64,000 bases of DNA from a virus (lineage: Duplodnaviria; Heunggongvirae; Uroviricota; Caudoviricetes). Made by a program: the position numbers and the translations under genes. Below are positions 1 through 53,501 of this stretch, in pieces. The stretch spans positions 2,432-66,431 of the IMG/VR virus record IMGVR_UViG_3300044878_000087; one strand, given 5' to 3'. Positions within the stretch are counted from its first letter, which is position 1. Every line of letters starts with the position of its first letter. Below the pieces are notes generated by a model, which saw only the letters and a list, made by a program, of their open reading frames with translations, was not told the origin of the DNA and did not search any database.

Positions 1-1
1 C

Positions 2-280
2 TTCAGGTTTCGAGACGTCTGTAAGTTCCTCTACCAACTGAGCAACATCACTACCGAACATATCTTCGATGTGGTCACGTTTGGTTTTGGTATCTTCGAT
101 TACATCATGCAGTACAGCTGCGCACCGCATGTCATCATCGACGTTGTCCGCTTGGTTCAAGATGAACAGCACATTGAGTGGATGTTCATGATAATCAGTA
201 AGCACGTATTTACGCAGTTGCCCAACCGCAGTATGGGCACCAACGCAGAATGCTTTTGCAAGGTCTACTTTGTTGTACAT
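2..280 (-). CDS. HD-domain (p)ppGpp hydrolase-like protein (small alarmone hydrolase/MESH1 type), 3' end outside window
   Basis: Not in ORF track. Manual translation: MYNKVDLAKAFCVGAHTAVGQLRKY...YHEHPLNV...AAVLHDVIEDT...MFGSDVAQLVEELTD, which has the AH-Q-RK, Y-x-x-HP, LHDxxEDT and FG-x-x-VA-x-LV-x-x-LT motifs of RelA/SpoT hydrolase domains. Confidence 0.85.
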   Translation of the reverse strand, partial: MYNKVDLAKAFCVGAHTAVGQLRKYVLTDYHEHPLNVLFILNQADNVDDDMRCAAVLHDVIEDTKTKRDHIEDMFGSDVAQLVEELTDVSKPE

Positions 281-326
281 TCGGTTCTACTCTAAAGGGA
301 TACATAAACTATCCCCCAGCGTAGTT

Positions 327-800
327 TTAACCTTTATACGGTTCCATGTAATCCAGGAACCCGTGTGCCTTACGAATCTTCTTGACCAGTTCCCGATAAT
401 ACGGGACACCAAGATCAAGGATGCGACGGCGTGATTCCGCAGTCAAGGGACTACTTAATCCTTTCGTTACCATCAGGTGATGGTGCAGTGTTGCGTGTGG
501 ATAAATCTCCATGTTGATGATGCTGATTAGGCGATCACTAACTCCAGGACGAATTTTAATTTTGGCGTGTGCATGTTTGGCTACGATGCACATGAAGTCA
601 CCTGTGGAGGTGTAACGCTTTTCATCGAGGAAAGACTCCAAGAGATTAGCTGCCTCCATTGCACACATTGCATCAGGATACCTAACCCAAAGCTTTTCAC
701 GCTTGGCTTCGTACTTTGCTTTCATACGACGCTTTTTGAGATCACGCATGAACTCATTGAATGCATTACGGCATTTACCAAATACAGCTAAACCTTTCAT
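327..800 (-). CDS. hypothetical protein
   Basis: 157 aa ORF, GGGAGA SD upstream, tightly packed with neighbours. Confidence 0.7.
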   Translation of the reverse strand: MKGLAVFGKCRNAFNEFMRDLKKRRMKAKYEAKREKLWVRYPDAMCAMEAANLLESFLDEKRYTSTGDFMCIVAKHAHAKIKIRPGVSDRLISIINMEIYPHATLHHHLMVTKGLSSPLTAESRRRILDLGVPYYRELVKKIRKAHGFLDYMEPYKG

Positions 801-809
801 TGTTCTCCC

Positions 810-1142
810 TTAGTCCATCATGGACAAGCGATAGTGTGCATCAGCACGCCAATAGATCGTTTCATCCGCTACGTGCCGAGCGTACTCGGCCACGATATGT
901 TCAACTACCGAGAAAGCCTCACGATAGCCCTGAGCGATCATCCGAACACCGTGTTGTACAGCATTCAGATTGATCGGCTCAGTTTCCCAACCACGTATGC
1001 CACGAAAACCCATGATACAACGAGCCCTGTGAATCAGGGCTTTCTCCAGTGCTTCCAGCGAGGAAAACTCAACTACGTTAAAGTCCTCCTTCGCTTTCGA
1101 CTCATGGATGTAAAATCCACTTACATGCATTTGGGCATTCAT
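810..1142 (-). CDS. hypothetical protein
   Basis: 110 aa ORF abutting upstream stop. Confidence 0.7.
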   Translation of the reverse strand: MNAQMHVSGFYIHESKAKEDFNVVEFSSLEALEKALIHRARCIMGFRGIRGWETEPINLNAVQHGVRMIAQGYREAFSVVEHIVAEYARHVADETIYWRADAHYRLSMMD

Positions 1143-1143
1143 G

Positions 1144-1833
1144 TCACACTCTCTTTGGCATTCCTATAATCAGATCGTGTCCTTCGCGGCTAACGCTGCC
1201 CCAGACGACGTTCCATCCTTTTGAACGCATATCGACAATCACACGTTCTTGTACTGCTGGATCAACAGTACCGATGAAGTTCAGGCTCCAGAAGTAGGAG
1301 AACTCATCGGACTGACGCAACTCGTGAACATTTGGGCTATCGAACAGTTCCTTGACTTTGTGCATCACATCTTCATAGGTAACTGTGGTCAACCCCGAAG
1401 CCCGACGATAGTAATCCATCGAAGGGATATCGTTGAGTGCATTTTCTTGCTTGTGCAAAGAACCATTTACATCTGGATTCAGCTGAACATGTTGTTTCAG
1501 CCAGATCGATTTCTCAATGCGGTTGCTACCATACAGGCAAACGTTAACACAGAGAGTTTCAGGATCGAAGATGTTACGTACTTCATCAATTGCTAGTACA
1601 CTTGCTACCAGTGTACGCAACGCTTGATCCCAGTGAGATCCCTCTTTGAGAGGAATAACCATCAGACGTTTCGGGTCCATGTGCTGGTCGAGGTGACCAT
1701 CAATGGTTACATAACGAACGTGGCCTTGATCACAGATTGCGATGTAGACACAATTGTCATGTTGCACCCGGCTATCCGTAGCCGGCATAGTTGGCCCACT
1801 GAACGCAGGCGAGTGCTGTACTGCATTGTCCAT
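1144..1833 (-). CDS. hypothetical protein
   Basis: ORF 1144..1893; start moved to MDNAVQ, which has a TAGGAG SD. Confidence 0.7.
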   Translation of the reverse strand: MDNAVQHSPAFSGPTMPATDSRVQHDNCVYIAICDQGHVRYVTIDGHLDQHMDPKRLMVIPLKEGSHWDQALRTLVASVLAIDEVRNIFDPETLCVNVCLYGSNRIEKSIWLKQHVQLNPDVNGSLHKQENALNDIPSMDYYRRASGLTTVTYEDVMHKVKELFDSPNVHELRQSDEFSYFWSLNFIGTVDPAVQERVIVDMRSKGWNVVWGSVSREGHDLIIGMPKRV

Positions 1834-2004
1834 GTTGAAGCTCCTACTTAGGATTGGCTGATTATTTGCTACGGCTTGCTTCGGGCGAAACAAAACAAAT
1901 GTTGTATTAGAGCTGAATGCTCTAATACTAGTTAATACGATAAAAAGCCCCCTCCTATGCTCTTAGTCACTGACCTTCACATTAGGTAGGGGACACACGT
2001 ACTT

Positions 2005-2247
2005 TTACTTTGCGATGGCTTGAAAGTCCACATAGACCATCATGACACAGCAAACGAATGCTGTCATAAACGGTACAGCCCAACAGAATACCGATGCCAC
2101 TGTACCGAAGTACTTCACTTGTGCATCAGTACACTGAAGCTCACGGAGACGCTCCATCAACTTAGCCATGTGGAATGCAGCGATACCGAATAACACGATA
2201 TAGAACAGGGCTATAACGCCCCAGACCTGAGATACAGTTAACGTCAT
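2005..2247 (-). CDS. small two-TM membrane protein
   Basis: Two hydrophobic stretches; ATGA overlap with upstream stop. Confidence 0.65.
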   Translation of the reverse strand: MTLTVSQVWGVIALFYIVLFGIAAFHMAKLMERLRELQCTDAQVKYFGTVASVFCWAVPFMTAFVCCVMMVYVDFQAIAK

Positions 2248-2741
2248 TCGCAATCACACTCGTACGGGTTGTGGTTCTCACGCAGATAGCGCAGATGCTT
2301 ATGGATCTCCTTGACGAGATCTTCCAGGAATACGACCGTGTAATGGCCGATTCGTTTATGTCCATCACACACCAGGTTGGTGTAGTTGAACTGGATGATC
2401 CCTAGCTTGCGCTCGACAGAGCGACGAGTGCACAACACTTCCAGATTCCAATCTGTGTTGGTCTTGAAAGTGTAGTTGTCAAGGAGCTCTGCCGTGAAGC
2501 AATTCAACAGAGAATCATCAGCGATCCGTTGTGGGAACCAAGCTTGTGGATCGTTGTAATTCCGTTGCCAGTTACTCCAAGCATGGGACTCACGAATAGC
2601 ACGCATGGTGCAAGGCAGAATACCTTCCGCCATCTCCATAGTTGCTCGCAGAATATCAGTGTAGTTCTGCTTAGCAGTTGAGAGTTCCCAGCAGCGAAAG
2701 AACATTTGTTCTAACGCCATTCGTAGGACTGCATCATTCAT
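2244..2741 (-). CDS. hypothetical protein
   Basis: ORF 2244..2765; likely start MNDAVLR. Confidence 0.65.
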   Translation of the reverse strand: MNDAVLRMALEQMFFRCWELSTAKQNYTDILRATMEMAEGILPCTMRAIRESHAWSNWQRNYNDPQAWFPQRIADDSLLNCFTAELLDNYTFKTNTDWNLEVLCTRRSVERKLGIIQFNYTNLVCDGHKRIGHYTVVFLEDLVKEIHKHLRYLRENHNPYECDCE

Positions 2742-2742
2742 T

Positions 2743-2937
2743 TCATGGCCCCTTGAGATAACCAAGACAGATAAGGATCAACAACACCTCAGGTGCCATC
2801 AATCCCGTTAACCACCACAACCGATGAGACCGATATGCCGGCTCACCGAATACGGCACAGATACCCGCTGCGAGTGTACAAGCCAGCATGAACAACATCG
2901 TGCTGGCTATCCATATTGCTGTTGATACGTACATCAC
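2743..2937 (-). CDS. small two-TM membrane protein
   Basis: 64 aa, two hydrophobic segments, operon packing. Confidence 0.55.
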   Translation of the reverse strand: MMYVSTAIWIASTMLFMLACTLAAGICAVFGEPAYRSHRLWWLTGLMAPEVLLILICLGYLKGP

Positions 2938-2943
2938 TTACCC

Positions 2944-3255
2944 TTAAGCCAACCGGCCATCCGTACTACGGTAAATCGAGTTCATGGTTTCTACCAGGCC
3001 ATTCACGTGATCCACACGAATGACTTTGGAAGTACGAGTTGCATGCCAACCACCATGGCAGTACATCTCACCCATAGCAACCACGACATCGGCCACGTCA
3101 GTACGATCAGGCCAGATCTTGATACCATCGACCAAATGCAAACCACGCATGCTGTAAACCAGCTTGGCAGTTGCCGGATCTTTGACAGGTTCGTATTTGA
3201 CGTCATCGAACTCAACGACCTTTACACCACAACCTTTTTCGGCTACATGTGACAT
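2944..3255 (-). CDS. hypothetical protein
   Basis: 103 aa, GGGAG SD upstream. Confidence 0.7.
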   Translation of the reverse strand: MSHVAEKGCGVKVVEFDDVKYEPVKDPATAKLVYSMRGLHLVDGIKIWPDRTDVADVVVAMGEMYCHGGWHATRTSKVIRVDHVNGLVETMNSIYRSTDGRLA

Positions 3256-3467
3256 TTTACTCTCCCCGTAGACTGATCTACTTTACGAGTGATTACTCGC
3301 CCACAGAAAACACACTGACTAGTAAATAGTTCGTGTGTAAAGAATTTACCCGCATTATCGATTGATGTGAACGTACTACCCGACCGAGACTTAATGCGTT
3401 CCCGCGAGATTAATTTGTATTGATGACGACAGCCACCTACAATCAACCGCCAGAGCCATAGTAACAT
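3243..3467 (-). CDS. small Cys/His protein (C-x-H ... CxxC), possible zinc ribbon
   Basis: GCRHQY...CVFCG. Confidence 0.55.
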   Translation of the reverse strand: MLLWLWRLIVGGCRHQYKLISRERIKSRSGSTFTSIDNAGKFFTHELFTSQCVFCGRVITRKVDQSTGRVKCHM

Positions 3468-3476
3468 GATTGACCC

Positions 3477-3977
3477 TTATTGAACGGTGAGTATTTCAGT
3501 GATTGCCTCTTGCACGCTCACGCCAATACCAGAAGGCTTGGTAGTGCGATCGAAAGCTACCCGAACAGTCAGAGCATTTTGAATCTCTTCAATTCGGCGT
3601 GGATCGAAGTATTCGGTAGCATGACCCGCGAAGGTATCACCGAACAGCGAGACGTAGCACAGTTCAGTAAGCGTGTGCTCACCGTCAATGCCAACCCACT
3701 TGGACTTCTGTGTTTTGATGAACCAGTATGACTGGCAGCCTTCGAGCTGGAACTTCATGCCGAGGCGGAACAGATGTGCACGAATGCGGTTCCAGTCCTC
3801 GATGTCGTCTTCCCGAGTTACATTAGGCTGCACGAGTTCAAGCCCTTCTCGCCACTCAGGATGGTTAGCGTCTAGGTAATCGCAGAACTTGGTCACACGG
3901 TACCACCACGACTTGATACCGTAGCGCCCAGGAATTTCAGTGAACAGCTGCAGTGCCGAAGGTGCTAATACTAACAT
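3477..3977 (-). CDS. hypothetical protein
   Basis: 166 aa ORF, operon packing. Confidence 0.7.
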   Translation of the reverse strand: MLVLAPSALQLFTEIPGRYGIKSWWYRVTKFCDYLDANHPEWREGLELVQPNVTREDDIEDWNRIRAHLFRLGMKFQLEGCQSYWFIKTQKSKWVGIDGEHTLTELCYVSLFGDTFAGHATEYFDPRRIEEIQNALTVRVAFDRTTKPSGIGVSVQEAITEILTVQ

Positions 3978-4314
3978 CTTGTTTCCCCGTATTGAACCAC
4001 TCGCTTATCACGATGGTTGTTCTATGCTTATTTTCTTTAGTGCGATACTTCAGCCGAATGACTTTCCACCCTGCATTGTGCAACGCAGTGAATACCTCAC
4101 CGAGTTCTTCAGCAACGTAATGTCGATCTAACCGAATGTTGAAACCACGTACACCAGGCTCTACCAGTGGATCAGTACCCATGGAAACCCAGGAGTTATC
4201 CATATCTGGAAAGAGCAGTTGTTGTGCAACTTGATTCATCAACCGTTCATCCCGCTTTTTCGCTCGGCGAGAGAATGTAATGTCAGGGGAGGGTAGCGTA
4301 TGAAACAGTGGCAT
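3937..4314 (-). CDS. hypothetical protein
   Basis: 125 aa ORF with GAGGT SD. Confidence 0.65.
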   Translation of the reverse strand: MPLFHTLPSPDITFSRRAKKRDERLMNQVAQQLLFPDMDNSWVSMGTDPLVEPGVRGFNIRLDRHYVAEELGEVFTALHNAGWKVIRLKYRTKENKHRTTIVISEWFNTGKQDVSISTFGTAAVH

Positions 4315-4471
4315 CCTTTACCTCGTAAGTTACACTGACGCAAGGCCTCTCAGGGCGCTTACAGTACATTTCTGACACAGACCCTACCGGTTGGGTCACT
4401 TCCCATACAGCCTGCCCTGCGCCCAACACACAGGCGCAGAGACAGATGATTCCAATTGCTATTTTACGCAT
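4283..4471 (-). CDS. small protein with N-terminal signal/TM helix
   Basis: MRKIAIGIICLCACVLGAG. Confidence 0.6.
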   Translation of the reverse strand: MRKIAIGIICLCACVLGAGQAVWEVTQPVGSVSEMYCKRPERPCVSVTYEVKDATVSYATLP

Positions 4472-4474
4472 AGT

Positions 4475-4810
4475 TTAGATCCACCGTGTGGCATGAGGGT
4501 ATTCTTTACGAATACGGTTAGCGATGTAACGATGATGGTCAGGATAAGATGTCGACAGGTTTACCCACATGATGCGAGCAGGCCCATTGTGCATTTCTTC
4601 CAACCATTCGCCACGCTTGATTTTCCCTTGTGCCAGACGATCATTGATTCCTTGGCGAGTTTTTCCTTCGTTCCACTCTTTCTTGAGTCGAGCGATTTCA
4701 CTTTCGATGTCACGCATTGGTTTGGCGACATGGCACATTGCAAAGTATCCGGCGGCAATCACCACCTTGGTAGCAACACGGCCAGCCACGTAGAGTCTGA
4801 AGTCGATCAT
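4475..4810 (-). CDS. membrane-anchored helical protein, local paralog family A
   Basis: Start MIDFRLY with AGGGG SD; RDIESEIARLKKEWNEGKTRQ aligns with 11242..11562. Confidence 0.7.
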   Translation of the reverse strand: MIDFRLYVAGRVATKVVIAAGYFAMCHVAKPMRDIESEIARLKKEWNEGKTRQGINDRLAQGKIKRGEWLEEMHNGPARIMWVNLSTSYPDHHRYIANRIRKEYPHATRWI

Positions 4811-4853
4811 TGTGTTAACCCCTAGATTGAATAAAATAAATTCTTGCTGTATA

Positions 4854-4896
4854 AAAAAGAAAAGGTTGGGTGGGGAAGCTTCCGCCTCCCCGCCCG
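4854..4896 (-). terminator. intrinsic terminator
   Basis: GGGCGGGGAGGC-GGAA-GCTTCCCCACCC followed by T-rich tail on minus strand. Confidence 0.7.
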
Positions 4897-4899
4897 GCA

Positions 4900-5184
4900 T
4901 CAGTCAGGAATCGACTCGATGTAGATCTCGACGTTCTTGCGTAACTCATGGAGTGAGTCCACGTAAGTAACTTTGCTTTCGTACTTGTCGAGCAGTTCGC
5001 GGGACTCGACCTTTACGTGTGCACGCACGGTTCCATTCCGTGACTTGTCGGCTCGGACACGATCCGTGATCGCATCCAGTTCTACATAGAGGTCTTCGAT
5101 TTGATAGCGATCCCAGAATCGCTGGCAAACCACCACGGCGCAGCTAACGACGCCGACCTTGAAAAGTGTTCCGAGCACGGACAT
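4900..5184 (-). CDS. membrane-anchored helical protein, family A-like
   Basis: N-terminal hydrophobic helix followed by charged helical region. Confidence 0.7.
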   Translation of the reverse strand: MSVLGTLFKVGVVSCAVVVCQRFWDRYQIEDLYVELDAITDRVRADKSRNGTVRAHVKVESRELLDKYESKVTYVDSLHELRKNVEIYIESIPD

Positions 5185-5189
5185 ATTTG

Positions 5190-5369
5190 TTACTCCATAA
5201 CCGTTGGGCTTGGTGGCATCTCACCACCTTCAGGCGGGGTAGGGCCATTGACGACATCGTCAGCGATTTCCACAGCATCAGCCGAGATTTCATCCCAGCT
5301 TCGCCCAACTTGAAAGGCCACATAACCGAGGGCAGCGATAGCGGTAATTTTCAGCAAGTTTTTAAACAT
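5190..5369 (-). CDS. 59 aa membrane peptide
   Basis: Manual: MFKNLLKITAIAALGYVAFQVGRSWDEISADAVEIADDVVNGPTPPEGGEMPPSPTVME; AAGGA SD. Confidence 0.7.
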   Translation of the reverse strand: MFKNLLKITAIAALGYVAFQVGRSWDEISADAVEIADDVVNGPTPPEGGEMPPSPTVME

Positions 5370-5424
5370 GGCATATTTCCTTCTATTGCTTTGGGTAATG
5401 GCCCCACACGAGGCCGGTGTGGGA

Positions 5425-5559
5425 TCACTGTGCTTTTGCAGCTTTGTTCATCTTCACGGTATCAGCGATATGATTCGCACATGCCCGTACAGTCGACACA
5501 GTCATGCAGATAACAACAAGCTTACCGAAGACACCCATTTCTTTGAATGCGTTTACCAT
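5425..5559 (-). CDS. 44 aa hydrophobic/basic peptide
   Basis: Manual: MVNAFKEMGVFGKLVVICMTVSTVRACANHIADTVKMNKAAKAQ; GGAG SD; hairpin 5403-5423 follows the stop. Confidence 0.65.
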   Translation of the reverse strand: MVNAFKEMGVFGKLVVICMTVSTVRACANHIADTVKMNKAAKAQ

Positions 5560-5604
5560 GATAGAACTCCGTAAATTAGTTAAGAGGTTTTGTAACAGCC
5601 GAGA

Positions 5605-5721
5605 TTACTTAGTCTCAGGTGCTTTAGGATTTGGACGGCATGCGTCAGAAACGGATTCAACAACTTGTTGGATGCAGCCCAGGACAACTGCAGTCACGAT
5701 AATCTTAGCGAAAGTACCCAT
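5605..5721 (-). CDS. 38 aa hydrophobic peptide
   Basis: Manual: MGTFAKIIVTAVVLGCIQQVVESVSDACRPNPKAPETK; AAGGA SD; first gene after promoter motif. Confidence 0.65.
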   Translation of the reverse strand: MGTFAKIIVTAVVLGCIQQVVESVSDACRPNPKAPETK

Positions 5722-5750
5722 GATCGATTCCTTTTAAAATTCGTGCTATA

Positions 5751-5787
5751 TTCAAGATTGTAATATAGCTCTTCAATTGTTTTAAAT
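5751..5787 (-). promoter_or_regulatory. phiKZ-type early (virion RNAP) promoter
   Basis: Minus strand ATTTAAA-N12-CTATATTAC-AATCTTGAA; TATATTAC is the phiKZ early consensus; repeated in window. Confidence 0.8.
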
Positions 5788-5791
5788 GCTT

Positions 5792-5989
5792 TTAGTCGCT
5801 TACGATTGCAGTAGTTACTGCAGTCAAGCCAGCTGCTACACACAGAACACCACCACCCATCAGGATAGTAACATCCCGGCGAGCATGACGCTTTTGCGAA
5901 TTATCGATACCTGCCTTAAGCATGATGCCACCGAGACCGATAGCAGTGCCTGCAGCAAGACCAATAGCCAAACGGTTCAGTAGGCCCAT
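5792..5989 (-). CDS. 65 aa two-helix Gly/Ala-rich membrane peptide
   Basis: LAIGLAAGTAIGLGG ... GGGVLCVAAGLTAV. Confidence 0.7.
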   Translation of the reverse strand: MGLLNRLAIGLAAGTAIGLGGIMLKAGIDNSQKRHARRDVTILMGGGVLCVAAGLTAVTTAIVSD

Positions 5990-5991
5990 GA

Positions 5992-6198
5992 TTATTTTCC
6001 TTTAGCGATATCAGTGAGAGTTTGGATGGCGCAGGTAGCACCAACAGCCATCAGAAAAGCACCAAAGCCGACCAGTACGACCTGATCAACTTCTTTTTCT
6101 TCCTTGGGTGGTTTTACGGCAGTCTTGATCAAGCGCAGACCGATACCAAGAGCCACACCAGCACACGAGCAATTTGCGATAGTTTTGAGCATTGCCAT
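5992..6198 (-). CDS. 68 aa two-helix membrane peptide
   Basis: AGVALGIGL ... VVLVGFGAFLMAVGA; same architecture as 5792..5989. Confidence 0.7.
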   Translation of the reverse strand: MAMLKTIANCSCAGVALGIGLRLIKTAVKPPKEEKEVDQVVLVGFGAFLMAVGATCAIQTLTDIAKGK

Positions 6199-6227
6199 AA
6201 TTGAATTCCTTTTTACTTAGATTGGGA

Positions 6228-6410
6228 TTAGCGAGTGACCAGCATTTCAGAACCCATAGGGCCGATGCGGTGACCAAGAATGATTTCTTTCTTTACAGAT
6301 GCAACTTCTTCAGTGTGACGTGGGCCACCCATAGTGCTGAGTTGCTGCAAACCGAACGAACCGATAGTCAGGCCGATCAGGAAGTAAACAGTTTGGAATT
6401 TGATTTTCAT
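6228..6410 (-). CDS. 60 aa peptide with N-terminal TM helix
   Basis: AAGGATTACACC leader; hydrophobic N-terminus. Confidence 0.6.
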   Translation of the reverse strand: MKIKFQTVYFLIGLTIGSFGLQQLSTMGGPRHTEEVASVKKEIILGHRIGPMGSEMLVTR

Positions 6411-6477
6411 GGTGTAATCCTTAATGTGGGTATAGCTTATTTTTCATGGATCGAAACAATCCATCAAGGATAAGCTA

Positions 6478-6495
6478 TGGGGACCGAAGTCCCCA
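6478..6495 (-). terminator. UUCG-loop hairpin
   Basis: TGGGGAC-TTCG-GTCCCCA just after the stop of 6501..6779. Confidence 0.65.
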
Positions 6496-6500
6496 CGCTA

Positions 6501-6779
6501 TTACTGCTCTACAACAGGCCAAACTTGTTTCAGATGCGCGTAGTCAGGCAAGCCAATCACAGCTCGCTTGGCATTGGTAGGGTCAGGTTTATGCAGGCCA
6601 CGAGGACCGACATTCTGAGCACTGCCTGAGCGAAGAGCAATCATCTCCAACCGAATCGCCTGGAGTGACCGTTCTTCGATTTCCCGTGCCTGGTATTCCA
6701 GGTTATGCTCTTCAGCCAGTTCACGTTTTTGTTGTGCCCGTGGCTTGAAGGCATGTTCCCAACGACCATCTACTTTCAT
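6501..6779 (-). CDS. hypothetical protein
   Basis: 92 aa ORF, GGGG SD. Confidence 0.65.
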   Translation of the reverse strand: MKVDGRWEHAFKPRAQQKRELAEEHNLEYQAREIEERSLQAIRLEMIALRSGSAQNVGPRGLHKPDPTNAKRAVIGLPDYAHLKQVWPVVEQ

Positions 6780-6791
6780 GCAGCCCCCGAA

Positions 6792-7217
6792 TCAGTTGAT
6801 TGCTTTTTCTACGAGCTGGCGTTCCACTTCCTCACGGAAGAAGTTGCGAAGCAAACCACCGTTAGAGTGACTATGACTTTCGCCATCGACTTCGATTCCA
6901 CCGATACCGAATACTGCTACATCGGTTACGGACTCGCCGAAGATCATGAGGTTGAAACGTTGGCAGATATATTTCTGCACTGGACATTCATTGAAGCGTA
7001 CAACTTCGCAGGCAGAGAATGTTTTGCCATTCACGAAGTATTCGATGTTATAGGCAGCCTCGTGGGCTTCCATGGTGCAACGAATTTGGGAGATCTGTTG
7101 GCCAGTTGTGCAACGCTTAGCCAGTGGCGATCTCGGACCGAAGGTGAATGCTGCTTGCAGCACCTGGTGAGTCAGGTGGGTGCGGAAGGTAATCAACTCT
7201 GCTTCTGTAGGTGCCAT
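6792..7217 (-). CDS. hypothetical protein
   Basis: ORF 6792..7364; start moved to MAPTEAE, which has an AAGGA SD. Confidence 0.7.
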   Translation of the reverse strand: MAPTEAELITFRTHLTHQVLQAAFTFGPRSPLAKRCTTGQQISQIRCTMEAHEAAYNIEYFVNGKTFSACEVVRFNECPVQKYICQRFNLMIFGESVTDVAVFGIGGIEVDGESHSHSNGGLLRNFFREEVERQLVEKAIN

Positions 7218-7242
7218 CTTTGAAATCCTTTTGCTACTTAGT

Positions 7243-7419
7243 TTATTTAGCTTGTTGTTGAGACAGCTTAGGAGGCTGGGTATTAGCCTGAGCCTCCTTG
7301 ATAGCTTTGGTACCAAAGCTATACAGACAACCTTCACGCAGACTGCGGTAAATGCTGTTACCAATGATACCTACTGCTACAACACTGGCAACAATACCGA
7401 CAGTTTTCATAGTGCTCAT
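7243..7419 (-). CDS. 58 aa membrane peptide
   Basis: Manual: MSTMKTVGIVASVVAVGIIGNSIYRSLREGCLYSFGTKAIKEAQANTQPPKLSQQQAK; AAGGAG SD. Confidence 0.7.
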   Translation of the reverse strand: MSTMKTVGIVASVVAVGIIGNSIYRSLREGCLYSFGTKAIKEAQANTQPPKLSQQQAK

Positions 7420-7428
7420 GATTGCTCC

Positions 7429-7710
7429 TTAAAGACCGTTAGAGGCCGCTTTCATTTGTTTGTTGAGTTCAGCTACGAATTGCTCACGATGGGACTCCAC
7501 AGCGATACGCAGACATTCCCAGGCGGTGAACCAATTCAGTTCAGATTCCAGTTCAGCGAAGGTTGGCTTGAAGGTGTACTTCGTGCACGCTTCTTTGATC
7601 GCTTCCGGAATCTTGCGCATGGCATCGTTACGATGCAAGCGGGACTCGTTCCAATAGCAAGCACCAGAAGCAGCGATGACACCAACAATACCGAGGATAG
7701 CGTTGCGCAT
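7429..7710 (-). CDS. membrane-anchored helical protein, family A-like
   Basis: MRNAILGIVGVIAASGACYW then helical region; AGGAGTTACACC leader. Confidence 0.75.
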   Translation of the reverse strand: MRNAILGIVGVIAASGACYWNESRLHRNDAMRKIPEAIKEACTKYTFKPTFAELESELNWFTAWECLRIAVESHREQFVAELNKQMKAASNGL

Positions 7711-7735
7711 GGTGTAACTCCTAAGAGTGGGATTA

Positions 7736-7772
7736 TTCAGGATAGTGATATAGGGGTTTAAAAGTTTTGATT
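7736..7772 (-). promoter_or_regulatory. early promoter variant
   Basis: AATCAAA-N12-CTATATCAC-TATCCTGAA, same spacing as the other copies. Confidence 0.7.
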
Positions 7773-8109
7773 ACATTTCGGACAGGGTGTTCAAGTGCGC
7801 TTTGACTTCAGCTACACCATGCGGTGGGAAAGAAGCACGACTTGCTTCACGGCCATCGACGGTGGTGACTACCTGGAAGCCTTGGAGCTCACGGTAGAAC
7901 ACTTCGATGGTATCTTTGTCCTTGCCATAGGTGCCCTTCATATAAGCGGTACCGAGGATGTAGGTGTACACGAAGTCGAAATCGTTTTTCTCTTGTTGGG
8001 TAAGATAGAATACCCGCTCGTTCTTCTTGTATTTCGATGGGTCCCAAGTGTGAGTTGGGTTGGTGATGTAGTCGACGAACTGATTGATTTCATTTGCCTT
8101 GTTGCGCAT
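7771..8109 (-). CDS. hypothetical protein
   Basis: 112 aa ORF, GGGAG SD. Confidence 0.7.
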   Translation of the reverse strand: MRNKANEINQFVDYITNPTHTWDPSKYKKNERVFYLTQQEKNDFDFVYTYILGTAYMKGTYGKDKDTIEVFYRELQGFQVVTTVDGREASRASFPPHGVAEVKAHLNTLSEM

Positions 8110-8147
8110 AGCTCTACTCCCTAGTTTCTCAATGTCACGGCATAAAG

Positions 8148-8166
8148 GCTACCCACAATGGGTAGC
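8148..8166. terminator. hairpin flanked by TATG motifs on both strands
   Basis: GCTACCCA-CAA-TGGGTAGC with cggcataaag and gcttatggcg flanks. Confidence 0.6.
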
Positions 8167-8178
8167 GCTTATGGCGTA

Positions 8179-8655
8179 TCACTGGTTACCGCTCATCCAA
8201 GGTGGATAGACAACTACCACCTTGTTTGGAATCTTTAATGAAGCTTCTTCGATCATCTCTGAAACGATATCAAAGTCTAGACCACCATTACCACAACCCA
8301 GTGGCGGTAGTACGAGTTTCCAGGCAGGATTGATTTGGTCTTCTTCTTCCCCGATGTTATCTACCAACCATTGTAAACCCATAGCGACGTATTCATAAGT
8401 CGATGGATTCTTCCAGTTCTCTTTGGTCGGGAACATTAGGTACTTCTTACCATCAGTGCCTTCATATAAAGCTGGATGTCCGATACTGATGCAATGCATC
8501 TTGCAATCGTGTTTGTATCGGAGGAACAGATCATGATGATTTTCTGCGAATGATTTAGCGACACCTGCGCCCATCACTCCGATTGTGTTTACTGTGACGA
8601 CGTAAAGATCTCCAGGTTCTTTGAAGACATCTTTACCGATTATAAATTCAGCCAT
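8179..8655 (-). CDS. macrodomain ADP-ribosyl hydrolase (TARG1/DarG/Poa1p-like)
   Basis: GKDVF, VNTIGVMGAGVAKSF, FPTKENWKNPS and PPLGCGNGGLDF motifs. Confidence 0.88.
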   Translation of the reverse strand: MAEFIIGKDVFKEPGDLYVVTVNTIGVMGAGVAKSFAENHHDLFLRYKHDCKMHCISIGHPALYEGTDGKKYLMFPTKENWKNPSTYEYVAMGLQWLVDNIGEEEDQINPAWKLVLPPLGCGNGGLDFDIVSEMIEEASLKIPNKVVVVYPPWMSGNQ

Positions 8656-8724
8656 TGAACCGGCTCCCATGAAAGTTGAGTTAATGGAGGGACCGGAGCG
8701 ATCCCTCTCATTAGATTGAGTTGA

Positions 8725-8895
8725 TTATTTTTTCAACTCATTCGCCAACTTCAGAGAACCCAGCGCAATGGCCAGTCCAACGGTAACAATGCTACCTGCA
8801 GCAGCTACGAACTTCAAACGAGAGGTCTGAAGATCGATGTCTTTTGCAGACATTGCTTTCTTTGGGTTGTTGGTGAAGATGCCTGCGATGTTCAT
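8725..8895 (-). CDS. 56 aa peptide with C-terminal TM helix
   Basis: Manual: MNIAGIFTNNPKKAMSAKDIDLQTSRLKFVAAAGSIVTVGLAIALGSLKLANELKK; ATGA overlap. Confidence 0.65.
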   Translation of the reverse strand: MNIAGIFTNNPKKAMSAKDIDLQTSRLKFVAAAGSIVTVGLAIALGSLKLANELKK

Positions 8896-9281
8896 TGGTG
8901 TGCCTTAAGCTCGTTGCGTTGTTGGTTGAGGATACGGATCACACGGTCAGGACCGACAAACCGTGCATGACCCAGCGAACCGACCATGCCTTGGATACGG
9001 AGACGGCATTGACGTACGTGACGCAGACAAGCCTGCTGCTGTATCCAGATCAGATCACGTATTTCCCGATCGGTCATATCCAGATCAAATTGTTCCAGAT
9101 CAGCTGCAGCCTTGTTGGCGACAGCCATAACACCTTTGGTGAAGCGGGTTGCTTTCTTACGAATGCGATCGCTTTTGGTACGCTCAGCGATTTTAAGCAT
9201 GGTACCGTAGCGACGGGCCAGACGGAACTGTTGCTTAACTTCCATACGCTCAACTGCTTGTTCACGATTAATGTAAGCCAT
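8892..9281 (-). CDS. basic helical hypothetical protein
   Basis: ORF 8892..9296; likely start MAYINRE. Confidence 0.7.
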   Translation of the reverse strand: MAYINREQAVERMEVKQQFRLARRYGTMLKIAERTKSDRIRKKATRFTKGVMAVANKAAADLEQFDLDMTDREIRDLIWIQQQACLRHVRQCRLRIQGMVGSLGHARFVGPDRVIRILNQQRNELKAHQ

Positions 9282-9361
9282 GTCGGTATTCCCCAAAAAG
9301 AAATCAGATCTAGTTTAGTTACCAGGGGTCCACGATCCTTAGACCATGAACCCTGAAGCGC

Positions 9362-9490
9362 TTACTTGCGCTTCTTAGCTTTAGCTTTTTGTTCAGCTTC
9401 CACAATGGCCTTAGCGGCATAGTGCGAGATTACACCGACGGCGGTGGCGATGGCAATACGTTTCGCCAGATCAATAACTGTATCTTTCAT
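9362..9490 (-). CDS. 42 aa cationic amphipathic peptide
   Basis: MKDTVIDLAKRIAIATAVGVISHYAAKAIVEAEQKAKAKKRK; AGGAG SD. Confidence 0.7.
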   Translation of the reverse strand: MKDTVIDLAKRIAIATAVGVISHYAAKAIVEAEQKAKAKKRK

Positions 9491-9515
9491 TGTGGAAACT
9501 CCTAAGCTGGGTGGA

Positions 9516-9680
9516 TTACTTCTTGAGGATGGTAGCGATACCGATGGCGCACAGGGCAACGATGCCACCGCTCACAGCCATCTGGGCTACGTCTTTCTTT
9601 TCAGCACGCGCTTCGTCGTACAGACCTTTAGCGTGAGCAGCACCGATCAAACCAAGAGCAGCGAGGCGAATAGCATTCAT
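9516..9680 (-). CDS. 54 aa two-helix membrane peptide
   Basis: Manual: MNAIRLAALGLIGAAHAKGLYDEARAEKKDVAQMAVSGGIVALCAIGIATILKK; GGAG SD. Confidence 0.7.
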   Translation of the reverse strand: MNAIRLAALGLIGAAHAKGLYDEARAEKKDVAQMAVSGGIVALCAIGIATILKK

Positions 9681-9712
9681 GATGTAACTCCATAACTTGA
9701 GGGGGGTGGTTT

Positions 9713-9749
9713 AGCACGTTTGTAATATAGCGGTTAAATCCGTTTCAAT
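9713..9749 (-). promoter_or_regulatory. early promoter
   Basis: ATTGAAA-N12-CTATATTAC-AAACGTGCT. Confidence 0.78.
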
Positions 9750-10129
9750 CAAGCCATGCGTTCAACAAGAACGCCTTCCGAGATTTCAACGTAGTTCTTT
9801 ACTGGAATGGTATTGTTCAGGAAACGCAACTGATGGCTATAGCCGATGAGTTGCATAGCCTTAGGAGCTTCTTCAAGCGTGATCATGCGACGTTTGAAAG
9901 CAGCCCGGTACACAGGCAGCCAACGGAATTCGAATTCGAGGGTAGAGCTTGCAGCAGTGTACGGCTTGTACGGGTTGAAGAACACCGGAGCCGAATCAGA
10001 GATCTTGCTGATGATGTTTGCAACTTCACGGTCAATGCGATCTTCTTCAGCACGGCGACCGCGGTTTGCGTATGCACGGTGAGCGAAATAAACAGCAGCG
10101 AGCAATACGCAGACGGCGATGATATTCAT
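9749..10129 (-). CDS. membrane-anchored protein, family A-like architecture
   Basis: MNIIAVCVLLAAVYFAH then charged helix. Confidence 0.7.
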   Translation of the reverse strand: MNIIAVCVLLAAVYFAHRAYANRGRRAEEDRIDREVANIISKISDSAPVFFNPYKPYTAASSTLEFEFRWLPVYRAAFKRRMITLEEAPKAMQLIGYSHQLRFLNNTIPVKNYVEISEGVLVERMA

Positions 10130-10164
10130 GTGTATCCCTTATCTTTAAATTTAATGTGTGCAGC

Positions 10165-10284
10165 TTACTTGATTTGCTTTTGTTTTGCAACCTGGGTGTC
10201 GATGGTTTTGATCACGGCTTTGGTGAGGTAGTGCGAAGCCGCAGTGATCAAGATTGCACGACCAATGGCGATAGCGAGTGGCAT
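10165..10284 (-). CDS. 39 aa cationic amphipathic peptide (paralog of 9362..9490)
   Basis: Manual: MPLAIAIGRAILITAASHYLTKAVIKTIDTQVAKQKQIK; AAGGAG SD. Confidence 0.7.
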   Translation of the reverse strand: MPLAIAIGRAILITAASHYLTKAVIKTIDTQVAKQKQIK

Positions 10285-10311
10285 TGTGTTGCTCCTTAGC
10301 TTGGGTAGAGA

Positions 10312-10461
10312 TTACTTGGCGTTACGTTTGGCATCTTGCTTGGCGCAGCGTTTTGCGGCATATTCGTTGGACCACATGCGCTTACCGATTTCATTGTTGA
10401 TCACCAGGATCACGCCGAATACAGCAACTGCTTTAGCCAGACCGATCAATTCGTTTTTCAT
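10312..10461 (-). CDS. 49 aa membrane peptide with basic tail
   Basis: Manual: MKNELIGLAKAVAVFGVILVINNEIGKRMWSNEYAAKRCAKQDAKRNAK; AAGGA SD. Confidence 0.7.
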   Translation of the reverse strand: MKNELIGLAKAVAVFGVILVINNEIGKRMWSNEYAAKRCAKQDAKRNAK

Positions 10462-10470
10462 GGGAGTTCC

Positions 10471-10665
10471 TTATGCGTTATTGGCGCTGATGGCTTTGAC
10501 GATAGTGAGGACACCGGCGAAGGTGATACCCATACCAACAGTTTCCACCACAATTGGGGGAACAGGTTTACCACATACTTTAACATCCACAACACCGGCA
10601 AAGAGAGTTTGGCCAGTATAAACAGCGGCAGCACCGATTGCAAGTTTGGTCATGAATGAAAGCAT
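10471..10665 (-). CDS. 64 aa two-helix membrane peptide
   Basis: AAGGAG SD; two hydrophobic segments. Confidence 0.7.
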   Translation of the reverse strand: MLSFMTKLAIGAAAVYTGQTLFAGVVDVKVCGKPVPPIVVETVGMGITFAGVLTIVKAISANNA

Positions 10666-10700
10666 AATGGAACTCCTTAGATTGTTTTATTGGGGGCTAT

Positions 10701-10737
10701 GTCACGATTGTAATATAGCCCTATAATTGTTTTAAAT
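10701..10737 (-). promoter_or_regulatory. early promoter
   Basis: ATTTAAA-N12-CTATATTAC-AATCGTGAC. Confidence 0.8.
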
Positions 10738-11054
10738 CATACTTCCGCAAGTATGATTAAGTGGCGATGTATAGCGTACATCTGTTTTAACCACTGACTC
10801 GATCGTTCTTGGTTGAACGATACGCGCAGATACCGGCGCTCTATGCGCTTGTGGGCAACACTGAGTTCTTCCAGAGCTTCGGTACGGGTGATCGTCTTAT
10901 TAAGCTGACGCTCACGAATGTCGTCGAACACCTGGGTGTATTCTTCAATGCACTTACCACACTCAGTTACCCGCATGCCGAGCTTTGCCATACCCCAAAC
11001 AAACAGAGCAGACAAACCGACTGTTGCGAGAACCATTGAATTATTCGTAGCCAT
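10737..11054 (-). CDS. membrane-anchored helical protein, family A
   Basis: N-terminal TM followed by helical domain; AAGGAG SD. Confidence 0.72.
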   Translation of the reverse strand: MATNNSMVLATVGLSALFVWGMAKLGMRVTECGKCIEEYTQVFDDIRERQLNKTITRTEALEELSVAHKRIERRYLRVSFNQERSSQWLKQMYAIHRHLIILAEV

Positions 11055-11080
11055 TTAAAGCTCCTTCGCCCACAGGCGGA

Positions 11081-11245
11081 TTAAAAGCCAAGCACTACAA
11101 AGGACATAACCAGGCTTGCTCCGAAGAGCAAGCCCAGTCGCTGAGGTGTAATCCAGAGAATATCTTTTTGTTGTGGCTCAGGTTCTTTGCCCTCAGCCAT
11201 GTTACGGTACCGATCGTTCAACGAATCATCGATGACATCGTTCAT
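11081..11245 (-). CDS. 54 aa tail-anchored peptide
   Basis: Manual: MNDVIDDSLNDRYRNMAEGKEPEPQQKDILWITPQRLGLLFGASLVMSFVVLGF; ATGA overlap with upstream stop; contains a hairpin. Confidence 0.5.
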   Translation of the reverse strand: MNDVIDDSLNDRYRNMAEGKEPEPQQKDILWITPQRLGLLFGASLVMSFVVLGF

Positions 11246-11562
11246 TCCGAATACCCCAGCAGTTTCTTCATACCGACACGATGTGCTTCAAAGAACGCCT
11301 GCTGTTCCTTTTTATCGGACAGACAGTAGTTCATATAAGCAGCCTGGAAACGATCGATAGCTACATCGATTTGTTTCTCAGCTTGTTGGCGGGACGAATC
11401 GCCATCCTGGAACTGTTTCTTGATCCGAGCCATTTCATCTTCCATGTCACGGAGGATGTCCGCGGCATGCTTGGAACGATAGTGGAGGCGGAAGCACGAA
11501 GCTGCGCACACCGTTACAACACTACCTACAAAACCAAGCACAACTTTCGATGCAATATCCAT
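11242..11562 (-). CDS. membrane-anchored helical protein, family A
   Basis: TM then RDMEDEMARIKKQFQDGDSSRQ. Confidence 0.75.
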   Translation of the reverse strand: MDIASKVVLGFVGSVVTVCAASCFRLHYRSKHAADILRDMEDEMARIKKQFQDGDSSRQQAEKQIDVAIDRFQAAYMNYCLSDKKEQQAFFEAHRVGMKKLLGYSE

Positions 11563-11587
11563 AAATCGATCCTTTTAGATGCGTAGA

Positions 11588-11624
11588 TTCACGTTCGTAA
11601 TATAGGCCTTTAAATGGTTTAAAT
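11588..11624 (-). promoter_or_regulatory. early promoter
   Basis: ATTTAAA-N12-CTATATTAC-GAACGTGAA. Confidence 0.8.
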
Positions 11625-12062
11625 CTACGTTTCGAACACGAAGCCTTCTATATCACCAGCGTCTGTGGTAATCGTAGTGCATTTAATAATGCTAGCTGGG
11701 ATCTGTGCTAGTGCTGGAGAAATGATCCGAAAGATGTTCTCGTAGTAATACAGGATGTGATCTGCGGGTACTGAATACCGTCCATCGAAATGATCACGGA
11801 GTTGGTGCATGAACCAATTGTACTGTTGATTGTTCTGTGTCAGATGAAAGTTGTGTCGTGCCATCAAATAAGCAGCAACCTTTGTGAAGAGATCATTGAT
11901 CACATGCATGTCAATAGAGACCAGTTCTTTAAGGCTACCCACCATGTTGTACGACCATACTTGTTCAATACGAACAAAGTGATTGATACCTAACATTCTA
12001 ATACCTGTCATAACTGCCTCCCCAACGGGAGGCGTTATGTCGTCAATTCGTTTTAGGGGCAT
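11625..12062 (-). CDS. conserved hypothetical protein at end of structural operon
   Basis: 145 aa, overlaps upstream gene. Confidence 0.7.
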   Translation of the reverse strand: MPLKRIDDITPPVGEAVMTGIRMLGINHFVRIEQVWSYNMVGSLKELVSIDMHVINDLFTKVAAYLMARHNFHLTQNNQQYNWFMHQLRDHFDGRYSVPADHILYYYENIFRIISPALAQIPASIIKCTTITTDAGDIEGFVFET

Positions 12063-13440
12063 CTGGATCTACAATGACCGGATCACCTTCTTTACGGTTA
12101 ATGAACACACCGAGGGTTACGATACCAACGTGAGATGATACTTCCACGTTAGAGTCTTGTTGTCCTCGCTGCTCGTCTACACCTAATAATACACCATTGT
12201 AAGTTTCTACAAGGTTATCATTAATAGTCATAAACTTAACCGGCATTCCAGGGAACAGTAAATCAGAATCACCATGATACCACTGCAACTTCAGAAACAT
12301 CCCACGTCTACGTGCCATCTCTGAGTAATGCTTGAACGGGTTAGACGTAGCTCGATCGTAAGCCCACCGAACGTTGTTCATACCCGATTCCAATAACCCA
12401 GTCGATACCTCGAATATGTTACTGGCTCGGTCTACTAGTGTACGGTTATCCTTAGCTGTGCCAAAGCCCCCCATAAGCTTGTTGACGTCACCAAACCGTA
12501 AACCGTTACCTTGTTTCAGGTTATCGGCTAAACCGTTGTCTAGCGAGCTTGCATCGCCTGTAGCGAGTACTGTGACGTGTTGCTCATCTACTTTAAAGGT
12601 TCGCTCAGCACCTTGATACCGATCGTTAGGAACGTTGATCAGTTTCAGTACCTTGGCATTCTTCTTGTAACGGGTAGAATCGTACAGTGGATAGATGTAC
12701 CAGTATTGATTTTGGAGATAACGACCGAAGCCTGTAGGGTAAACCCCACCTTCTTCTTCCTGGATGTAATGGGGAACGTCTTTCAACATTATCCCATCGG
12801 GGAAGTCCATCACCGTACGGATCTCTTGGTTATAACCTTCCACGAAGTTGATACCTTTAATGCGCTTGGCATCTTGAGTACCGACATCACCCATCGTTGA
12901 CGCTAACACTTCTTGGATAGCCATCATCGTAGTACATTGACGCAAGCCATTACCATAAGACATCATGTTCACACGGAAAGCAGATTCTTCAATGAGCTGT
13001 ACCGCTACGGACATCATCCCGAGTTGGTTCAACGATTCACGAGAGCTGGTTTGTGCGTTCTTGTTGGTTACGGAGTTGTTGAACTGTGTCATTAACACAG
13101 CTCGGTAACGTTTGACTTCAGACTTGCGTGTGGTGTCCATGGAGTTCGAGTTATACTTCAAAGGAACGTATACGACTTCGCACATCAGGTTATCCCGATT
13201 AGGTACAACGTCGTATTGGAAATCCCCTTGCTGCATCATGAACTGAAGCATGCGACGATCAGAGAACTGCTGTGGGTCAGCGTAGTTTCGACTCAGTGAT
13301 TCGAACTCGATCTTCTGTGGTTTGATCCAGGTTGTTTCTTTAACGATCAGTTGAGCATCGATGCGCCATCCCGAGTTACCTTCACCGTTATCTCGGATGT
13401 CATCCACTTCTCGCATGAGTAGCGTATTATCAACAGACAT
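12043..13440 (-). CDS. virion structural protein, probable baseplate hub (phiKZ gp101-like)
   Basis: 465 aa; C-terminal GDSDLLFPGMPVKF resembles hub/late-control-D proteins; synteny. Confidence 0.6.
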   Translation of the reverse strand: MSVDNTLLMREVDDIRDNGEGNSGWRIDAQLIVKETTWIKPQKIEFESLSRNYADPQQFSDRRMLQFMMQQGDFQYDVVPNRDNLMCEVVYVPLKYNSNSMDTTRKSEVKRYRAVLMTQFNNSVTNKNAQTSSRESLNQLGMMSVAVQLIEESAFRVNMMSYGNGLRQCTTMMAIQEVLASTMGDVGTQDAKRIKGINFVEGYNQEIRTVMDFPDGIMLKDVPHYIQEEEGGVYPTGFGRYLQNQYWYIYPLYDSTRYKKNAKVLKLINVPNDRYQGAERTFKVDEQHVTVLATGDASSLDNGLADNLKQGNGLRFGDVNKLMGGFGTAKDNRTLVDRASNIFEVSTGLLESGMNNVRWAYDRATSNPFKHYSEMARRRGMFLKLQWYHGDSDLLFPGMPVKFMTINDNLVETYNGVLLGVDEQRGQQDSNVEVSSHVGIVTLGVFINRKEGDPVIVDPDAPKTN

Positions 13441-47342: not shown

Positions 47343-47370
47343 GTAATATAGTTTTGAAGTTTGATCGAAT
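47343..47370 (-). promoter_or_regulatory. early-promoter-like motif
   Basis: ATTCGAT-N12-CTATATTAC directly after the RNAP stop codon. Confidence 0.55.
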
Positions 47371-53464: not shown

Positions 53465-53501
53465 TTCACAAAAGTAATATAGTCCCCAGGAAAGTTTAAA
53501 T
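53465..53501 (-). promoter_or_regulatory. early promoter
   Basis: ATTTAAA-N12-CTATATTAC-TTTTGTGAA. Confidence 0.8.

Follow-up and report, generated by a model that had tools for sequence, protein, structure and literature searches.

The window analyzed here is a stretch of 64,000 nucleotides (nt) taken from a virus record that is 310,743 bp long and has terminal repeats (IMG/VR record IMGVR_UViG_3300044878_000087, bases 2432-66431), and the subject of this report is an island of small, closely packed genes at window positions 4283-11624. The sequence was read directly and start codons were scored by their Shine-Dalgarno (SD) match, which gave a model of 26 genes in the same direction on the minus strand, designated g01-g26 and extending from 11562 down to 4283. 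A preliminary description of this DNA had proposed about 26 co-oriented genes, comprising 15 tiny peptides and six proteins anchored by a transmembrane (TM) segment among others, and the gene model confirmed these counts: 15 products are peptides of 38-68 amino acids (aa) (g02, g04, g05, g06, g08, g09, g11, g15, g18-g23, and g26), six are proteins of 93-126 aa with an N-terminal hydrophobic helix (g01, g03, g07, g14, g24, and g25), and the remaining five (g10, g12, g13, g16, and g17) have no membrane segment. The near-gapless tiling that had been described was also borne out, as intergenic distances in the array range from -4 to 90 nt and an SD-like sequence or an ATGA overlap was found at 24 of the 26 genes. 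It had further been stated that nine peptides fall below the cutoff for open reading frames (ORFs); the small genes are there, but ten of the 26 products, not nine, are shorter than 60 aa.

The N-terminally anchored proteins include g01 (11242-11562, 106 aa) and g03 (10737-11054, 105 aa), in which a TM helix is followed by a helical domain; g07 (9749-10129, 126 aa), with a TM helix and a modelled alpha/beta domain of no known fold; g14 (7429-7710, 93 aa), with a weak TM segment and a helical domain; g24 (4900-5184, 94 aa), which has a TM segment, a helical domain and an invariant C-terminal EIYIESIPD and is the best conserved membrane gene of the island; and g25 (4475-4810, 111 aa), whose N-terminal hydrophobic helix is followed by three more helices. 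Among the peptides, g02 (11081-11245, 54 aa) and g11 (8725-8895, 56 aa) are tail-anchored and both start in an ATGA overlap, and g08 (9516-9680, 54 aa) is a hairpin or tail-anchored. Two-helix hairpins are formed by g04 (10471-10665, 64 aa, Gly/Ala-rich), g19 (5992-6198, 68 aa), and g20 (5792-5989, 65 aa). One TM helix is found in g05 (10312-10461, 49 aa) with a Lys/Arg tail, g15 (7243-7419, 58 aa), g21 (5605-5721, 38 aa), and g22 (5425-5559, 44 aa) with a basic tail. Lys-rich tails follow the weakly hydrophobic helix of g06 (10165-10284, 39 aa) and the single helix of g09 (9362-9490, 42 aa), the latter starting at an ATG preceded by AGGAG and not at the GTG upstream, while g23 (5190-5369, 59 aa) combines a weak N-terminal hydrophobic helix with an acidic, Pro-rich tail. 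The last two peptides are g18 (6228-6410, 60 aa), with an N-terminal anchor and a conserved C-terminal ILGHRIGPxGxEMLV motif, and g26 (4283-4471, 62 aa), with a predicted Sec-type signal peptide. The soluble products are g10 (8892-9281, 129 aa), which is basic with a net charge of +13; the macrodomain protein g12 (8179-8655, 158 aa); g13 (7771-8109, 112 aa), which belongs to phrog_25238, a family with no assigned function; g16 (6792-7217, 141 aa), which is kept across the clade; and the charged g17 (6501-6779, 92 aa), the least conserved gene of the array.

Hydrophobicity was assessed by Kyte-Doolittle profiles. A hydrophobic segment was present in 21 of the 26 products with a 15-residue window, and 16 products reached the classical threshold of 1.6 with a 19-residue window. 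Small hydrophobic proteins make up 21 of 24 small proteins in the island by the manual model as against 29 of 132 elsewhere in the genome (Fisher p = 1e-9), the genome background being a crude gene call; in that whole-genome call, the two 5-kb bins over the island contain 12 of the 43 small hydrophobic proteins. The clustering of membrane proteins in the island is, thus, non-random.

The closest relatives in GenBank are the Pseudomonas phages D6, Psa21 (Tepukevirus), and RVTF4, and IMG/VR together with metagenome contigs supplied at least five further genomes. In at least eight related genomes, the genes come in the same order, differ in length by no more than a few residues, and have their hydrophobic segment at the same position. 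For every gene and in every comparison, the proportion of nonsynonymous differences (pN) was far below that of synonymous differences (pS), and the pooled ratio of nonsynonymous to synonymous substitution (dN/dS) was 0.18-0.33, with dS near saturation. These two results indicate that the small ORFs are genes and did not arise by chance. The opposite reading, of chance ORFs in non-coding or antisense sequence, can draw on the ten ORFs of fewer than 60 codons and on the long antisense ORFs of the plus strand; it has to contend with the SD sites, the tiling, the pattern of order, length and hydrophobicity shared by at least eight genomes, the low pN of every gene, and the independent annotation of these small ORFs, as hypothetical proteins, in the records of D6, Psa21, and RVTF4, and we regard it as having practically no chance of being correct. 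Searches by tblastn with g24, g25, and g26 against 50,697 phage records gave no matches beyond D6, Psa21, and RVTF4, and searches with g24 and g11 of a collection of 5.8 billion proteins returned nothing outside the same clade.

We turn to the promoters, of which the preliminary description had listed five of an early type. All five were recovered on the minus strand: four copies of the core TATATTAC before g01 (11597-11604), g04 (10710-10717), g08 (9722-9729), and g21 (5760-5767), and one variant, TATATCAC, before g14 (7745-7752) with the same upstream TTTAAA element as the TATATTAC sites. The window has six copies of the core where one would be expected, and four of them fall within the array, all between genes and on the coding strand; the other two are at 47343-47350 and 53474-53481. 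Genome-wide, TATAT[TC]AC is found in two upstream contexts. Class A has the form GATTTAAA...TTAAAGGCC-TATATTAC-nnnCGTGA (shortened, ATTTAAA...TATATTAC...GTGA or ATTTAAA...GGCC-TATATTAC) and is represented by 14 sites in the genome, five of which are those of the island, so that every island promoter is of this class. It fits both the consensus predicted for 201phi2-1 early promoters and the core of phiKZ, as tabulated in PMC7058600, agrees with the AT-rich early motif of phiKZ and 201phi2-1 (PMC10914365, PMC11512511), and also fits the sequences before gp102.1, gp105, and gp241 that we read in the phiKZ record. The island of L015, a metagenomic relative at a greater distance, likewise has five class A sites. 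These data place all five motifs in the phiKZ/201phi2-1 early context, and promoters of the type read by virion RNA polymerase lead us to expect the products in the first minutes of infection.

Class B, AATCTCAGATC-TATATTAC, is sharply conserved at about 12 genome sites, none of them in the island; those outside the window are at genome coordinates 67046, 73086, 100178, 142855, 166864, 203328, 217295, 218753, 243578, 297929, and 301403. This context could be the signature of a second class of promoters or of a subset that depends on a factor. Among the five island promoters, three are embedded in inverted repeats (11590-11640, GTAGATT...AATCTAC; 10695-10725, GGGCTAT...ATAGCCC; 5745-5770, GCTATATT...AATATAGC), which could serve as terminators for upstream read-through or as operator sites. 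With 10 promoter-like sites where 11.5 were expected, a generic scan for sigma-70 promoters carried no information. As a generic terminator scan overlooks hairpins without T-runs, the intergenic regions were folded directly, and stable hairpins were found as candidate terminators on the same strand, 3' of g09 (9326-9353, with -26.5 kcal/mol for the intergenic fold), g11 (8682-8713), g12 (8134-8181), g17 (6432-6494, two hairpins, the first with a TTCG loop), g22 (5399-5427), and g24 (4868-4897); the last is a GC-rich hairpin followed by a T-rich run and resembles the phiKZ terminator motif (PMC10914365).

The promoter type also bears on whether the island might be a lysis-control cassette, in which holins, antiholins or spanin-like proteins would time or execute lysis. 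Small proteins with one or two TM segments do look like holin classes, a gene annotated as 'holin' lies inside the array of relatives (Psa21 gp129 and RVTF4), and g08 gave a match to Phage_holin_10 (PF23987) at E 0.09, which at 13 bits against a cut-off of 27 is far below threshold. The promoters, however, are of the early and not of the late type, and the 'holin' gene of the relatives is absent from this genome and is located outside the TM cassette in PS119XW. No lytic enzyme is encoded nearby either, the only SLT-domain match of the genome being about 210 kb away inside a 2339-aa frame; neither PG_binding_1 nor Phage_lysozyme was matched in the genome, and the island proteins gave no PHROG holin match. 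A role of the island in lysis is, in our estimate, highly improbable. The gene that is labelled 'holin' in Psa21 and RVTF4 encodes a highly conserved protein with three TM segments between the positions of g18 and g19 (D6, 4946-5266; Psa21, 5002-5325; RVTF4, 5468-5743) and is related to PS119XW gp130; in the present genome, only a 29-nt gap (6199-6227) is found at this position, and tblastn located no copy anywhere in the genome.

The location of the island provided a link to better studied phages. Directly upstream of g01 and on the same strand is a gene similar to phiKZ gp102 (11625-12011; phrog_14431, matching phiKZ gp102 and PS119XW gp109), which forms the upstream boundary of the slot, and this is preceded by a conserved anchor gene for a 465-aa virion protein similar to PHIKZ101 (12043-13440; 45% identity), homologs of which are present in 290 phage records. 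The island, thus, follows directly on the gp101 and gp102 homologs, co-oriented with them, as does the corresponding slot of phiKZ. The phiKZ stretch after gp102 encodes about seven TM proteins, among them the tail-anchored gp102.1 (41 aa) and gp106.1 and the N-terminally anchored gp103, gp106, gp107, and gp108 (105-130 aa), with the macrodomain gene gp104 and TATATTAC promoters interspersed. The PS119XW stretch (gp110-gp124) encodes 13 small hydrophobic proteins and the macrodomain protein gp112, and three TATATTAC sites were counted in each of the two stretches. Orthologs tie the three slots together: g02 corresponds to gp102.1 of phiKZ and gp110 of PS119XW (hmmsearch 1e-4; hhalign 83%), g12 to gp104 and gp112 (57-58% identity), and g18 and g26 to gp119 (1.6e-13) and gp124 (1e-9) of PS119XW. 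Most other island members have positional counterparts of like build, with no detectable sequence similarity; for example, the macrodomain gene is immediately preceded by the gene of a tail-anchored peptide of about 55 aa both here (g11) and in PS119XW (gp111).

Because of these ortholog anchors and of the position after gp101/gp102, the island is best described as an enlarged version of the phiKZ gp102.1-gp108 and PS119XW gp110-gp124 slot, and not as a new stand-alone locus or as the undescribed system that had been proposed as a candidate. Tail-anchored peptides, N-anchored proteins of about 100 aa, a macrodomain gene and TATATTAC promoters are common to all three, whereas the number of membrane proteins is three times larger here than in phiKZ (21 versus about seven) and, unlike in the phiKZ and PS119XW slots as examined, families of two-TM hairpins and Lys-tailed peptides have been expanded by duplication. 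The slot itself was already known in phiKZ-like phages, although its phiKZ genes other than gp104 are themselves uncharacterized; what is new is the much expanded variant. The PHIKZ101 homolog upheld the assignment to phiKZ-like phages, as did the shell and PhuZ homologs carried by the close relative Psa21 (PMC6544186), and by these sequence relationships the virus is a phiKZ-like, Tepukevirus-like Pseudomonas jumbo phage.

One member of the island has a counterpart of established function. g12 is 57% identical to phiKZ gp104, matches DarG in PADLOC (2e-36) and scores above the cut-off of the Pfam Macro family. In phiKZ, gp104 is the anti-DarT factor AdfM, a DarG2-like macrodomain protein that is imported into the phage nucleus and strips the ADP-ribose added by DarT2 from DNA (PMC13309987), and the present phage is, thus, probably resistant to DarTG2 systems. 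With the AdfM gene and four more soluble genes inside it, the island is not dedicated to membranes; of the early-expressed membrane array that had been proposed, the promoter type and the apparent membrane anchoring of most products stood, and the notion of a dedicated membrane toolkit did not. Searches of all 26 proteins against PHROGs, Pfam and PADLOC yielded families only for g12 (macro/DarG), g13 (phrog_25238), and g18 (phrog_15989), and matches of other proteins to InPase, BOFC_N, AbiEi, RmrA, and Phage_holin_10 were dismissed as sub-threshold noise. Data on the phiKZ counterpart are also available. The genes for p32, gp103, and gp105, which lie beside gp104, are dispensable (PMC13309987), and most small phiKZ genes tolerate transposon insertions (PMC12676376), so that at least part of the phiKZ counterpart is dispensable in the laboratory. 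gp108 of the same slot is known to be made in infected cells, where it could be cross-linked to ribosomal protein L29 close to the exit site, a contact that according to its authors may merely reflect ongoing translation (PMC10449902).

To see how the island proteins relate to one another, the 26 ortholog alignments were compared profile against profile with hhalign. Four paralog groups emerged: g06 and g09 (96%), with g05 joined more weakly; g21 and g22 (96%); g19 and g20 (96%), together with g04 (95% to g19); and g01 and g03 (91%), to which g25 is connected through g01 by blastp (3e-6). As a control, 17 hydrophobic proteins of phiKZ and PS119XW were compared in the same way; g02 with gp102.1 (83%) was the only real match and no other score exceeded 40%, which argues that the high paralog scores do not come from composition alone. 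The profile comparison, thus, indicates that the island grew in part by tandem duplication, with at least four paralog groups. In the hairpin family (g04, g19, and g20), Gly is kept at three columns and small-xxx-small spacing occurs in both helices. A profile of this family found only 11 proteins among 1.84 billion representatives, and two more distant matches could be traced to contigs, where both lie amid similar small genes, one of them in the same island of a relative.

Topology was predicted by the positive-inside rule from the Lys and Arg residues in the flanks. Nearly all N-terminal anchors have more Lys/Arg in the C-terminal than in the N-terminal flank and are, thus, predicted to have their N-terminus outside and their C-terminus inside; the hairpins have a basic loop that is predicted inside, and so is the hydrophilic part of g02, g08, and g11, all scored here as tail-anchored. 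Most hydrophilic parts of the membrane proteins would, thus, face the cytoplasm. A classical signal peptide was predicted in g26 alone, which has a conserved AxA site and two conserved Cys residues in the mature part and is probably exported. Given the basic N-terminus of g18, the conserved motif at its C-terminus may be on the periplasmic side. The motif itself (ILGHRIGPxGxEMLV, window 6228-6310), a small conserved module (phrog_15989), is shared by 51 records of Pseudomonas jumbo phages; its place in phiKZ-type genomes is another locus, at about 4.5 kb in KTN4 coordinates.

AlphaFold2 models were built for two of the larger proteins from shallow alignments. The g07 model (pLDDT 82) has a long N-terminal helix and a confident alpha/beta domain, and that of g25 (pLDDT 79) has four helices. 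Comparison with the PDB gave no convincing solved relative (best Foldseek E 0.09), the best VIA-align Z-scores, 4.5 for g07 and 6.4 for the helical g25, are both within the stated noise of the tool, and a search of BFVD returned only the Psa21 ortholog and a weak Noxifer match (E 1e-3).

The island genes have diverged more than their upstream neighbors. Across the clade, the adjacent structural genes on the upstream side share 86-96% identity, whereas island genes, with the exception of g12 and g24, are 30-86% identical, which marks the island as a hot spot of divergence. Gene content also differs between close relatives: g04, g05, g10, g13, g15, and g17 were found in only some genomes of the clade, and the island contains at least 12 unrelated families. 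The idea that the array is one system was not supported by these comparisons, which point to a variable collection whose content shifts between close relatives. The hypervariable accessory region continues downstream of g26, in window positions 1-4282, with small soluble genes that are 30-88% identical across the clade, one of which (2944-3255) is a homolog of PS119XW gp120. In the metagenomic relative L015 (1327-2013), and also in L016 and L017, a GIY-YIG homing-endonuclease gene similar to I-TevI is inserted just after the g02 homolog. The g26 counterpart of D6 (3001-3190) matches in two pieces with no signal peptide in one frame, and is probably broken or misassembled.

Given the early-type promoters and the predicted membrane anchors, a comparison with phiKZ gp241 was made. 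According to reviews, this early protein is sensed by JukA at the early infection (EPI) vesicle and activates the Juk defense (PMC13434031, PMC13282480). In the phiKZ record, gp241 is a protein of 109 aa whose hydrophobic helix spans residues 3-23 and has its more basic flank on the C-terminal side, and a promoter of the form TTTAAACAG-TATATTAC is located 30 nt upstream of its gene. Its length of about 100 aa, N-terminal TM helix, predicted cytoplasmic C-terminus and helical remainder are the build of g01, g03, g07, g14, g24, and g25. On the other hand, gp241 is encoded at another phiKZ locus than the gp102.1-gp108 slot, no significant similarity was found between it and the island proteins (the best blastp E value was 0.03 in a nine-protein database, and the best hhalign score, 27%, covered the TM helix only), and tblastn detected no gp241 homolog in this genome. 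We, thus, consider gp241 the closest functional precedent, with a match in architecture only and not in family membership.

This precedent gives some substance to the proposal that the island is a dedicated toolkit for the infection vesicle, whose products would maintain or tether the vesicle, open it for exchange, or pass the genome to the nascent nucleus. The early-type promoters and the predicted orientation of the anchors toward the cytoplasm suit such a role, as does the shared architecture of a protein reported at the vesicle; the conserved small-xxx-small motifs of the hairpin family are typical of self-associating helices, and the passage of material across the vesicle is an open question in the field (PMC13282480). 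Against this, the vesicle arises at injection and transcription is immediate, before the island genes could be expressed (PMC13282480), which makes the vesicle building suggested in the preliminary description unlikely. An essential organelle function should also vary less than is seen here, where gene content differs and identities are 30-60% as compared with 86-96% for the structural genes; the phiKZ slot has only about seven such genes, with p32 and gp103 dispensable, and the island has no sequence link to gp241 and encodes, besides membrane proteins, a nuclear enzyme and other soluble ones. We consider a dedicated vesicle toolkit improbable on balance. An idea that we hold equally tentatively is that about 20 cytoplasm-facing anchored proteins form a phage-made coat of the vesicle, with gp241 as the phiKZ example. 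Such proteins would mark the vesicle, recruit ribosomes or factors for nucleus assembly, or hide the vesicle from defenses directed at it, such as Juk and Avs5, the glycine-rich hairpins would form small channels, and the rapid turnover of genes would result from an arms race with sensors of the host that recognize these proteins.

Small membrane or exported proteins that are made early, are non-essential, and exclude superinfecting phages are found in large virulent phages, as exemplified by Imm and Sp of T4 and Llp of T5. In general terms, the island peptides would resemble these as small, early and non-essential proteins of the envelope. A block for superinfection exclusion or envelope protection, which would shut out other phages by acting on receptors, pili, DNA entry or incoming lysozymes, would further be in keeping with the predicted inner-membrane location of most products, with the one predicted exported, Cys-containing peptide (g26), and with the rapid diversification and change in copy number, which suit an arms race between phages. 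The known proteins are, however, encoded by single genes, and an array of 21 is far above the number in known exclusion systems; the hydrophilic parts are mostly predicted in the cytoplasm, whereas entry is blocked in the periplasm, and Pfam and PHROGs gave no similarity to known exclusion proteins. As an account of the island as a whole, exclusion is, thus, a doubtful candidate.

The reading that we favor, with a probability of roughly 0.6, is that the island is a rapidly evolving accessory locus whose products are early inner-membrane proteins, most of them facing the cytoplasm, and work individually at the interface between phage and host. According to this reading, the island fills a conserved slot directly after the gp101/gp102 virion genes and would be split by its class A promoters into several short transcription units, which would be read by the injected virion RNA polymerase as in phiKZ and 201phi2-1. 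The 21 predicted membrane proteins would be anchored in the cytoplasmic membrane by one or two helices, most exposing a short hydrophilic part to the cytoplasm, and g26 and probably the C-terminus of g18 exposing theirs to the periplasm. The island would expand by tandem duplication and divergence, with genes gained and lost between close relatives, and its proteins would serve, singly or a few together, as inner-membrane factors at the interface with the host. Since the early infection vesicle is made from the inner membrane, action on the cytoplasmic face of the vesicle is also possible. Candidate roles are the exclusion of other phages, the blocking or evasion of membrane-associated defenses, and the alteration of envelope functions.

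Some points weigh against this reading. The hydrophobic segments of five of the 21 proteins (g06, g14, g18, g23, and g25) are weak in the 19-residue Kyte-Doolittle window and may be amphipathic or marginal TM helices. Early timing is deduced from a conserved promoter motif, and none of the membrane proteins was given a function by any family, fold or defense-library match. The clustering of membrane proteins could reflect a common function beyond the reach of these data. Finally, the pN/pS alignments were picked by protein similarity, which biases them toward low pN, with dS near saturation; the conservation of synteny and gene length is independent of this selection bias.

Two of the open questions in jumbo-phage biology are the role of the many small uncharacterized genes and the working of the early infection vesicle (PMC13282480). 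The island packs 21 candidate early membrane proteins into 7 kb, and its slot is shared with the model phage phiKZ, for which genetics by Cas13 escape, transposon sequencing (TnSeq) and antisense knock-down already exist. It also identifies the slot beside the anti-DarT gene AdfM as a hot spot of expansion. If its products turn out to be merely ordinary accessory factors, the value of this work would lie mainly in a better annotation of Tepukevirus-like phages, which are used in the biocontrol of Pseudomonas syringae. As gp241 is the only characterized early phage protein associated with the vesicle and six island members share its build, the comparison with gp241 and phiKZ provides a short, ordered list of genes for studies of localization, Juk-type defense and exclusion.

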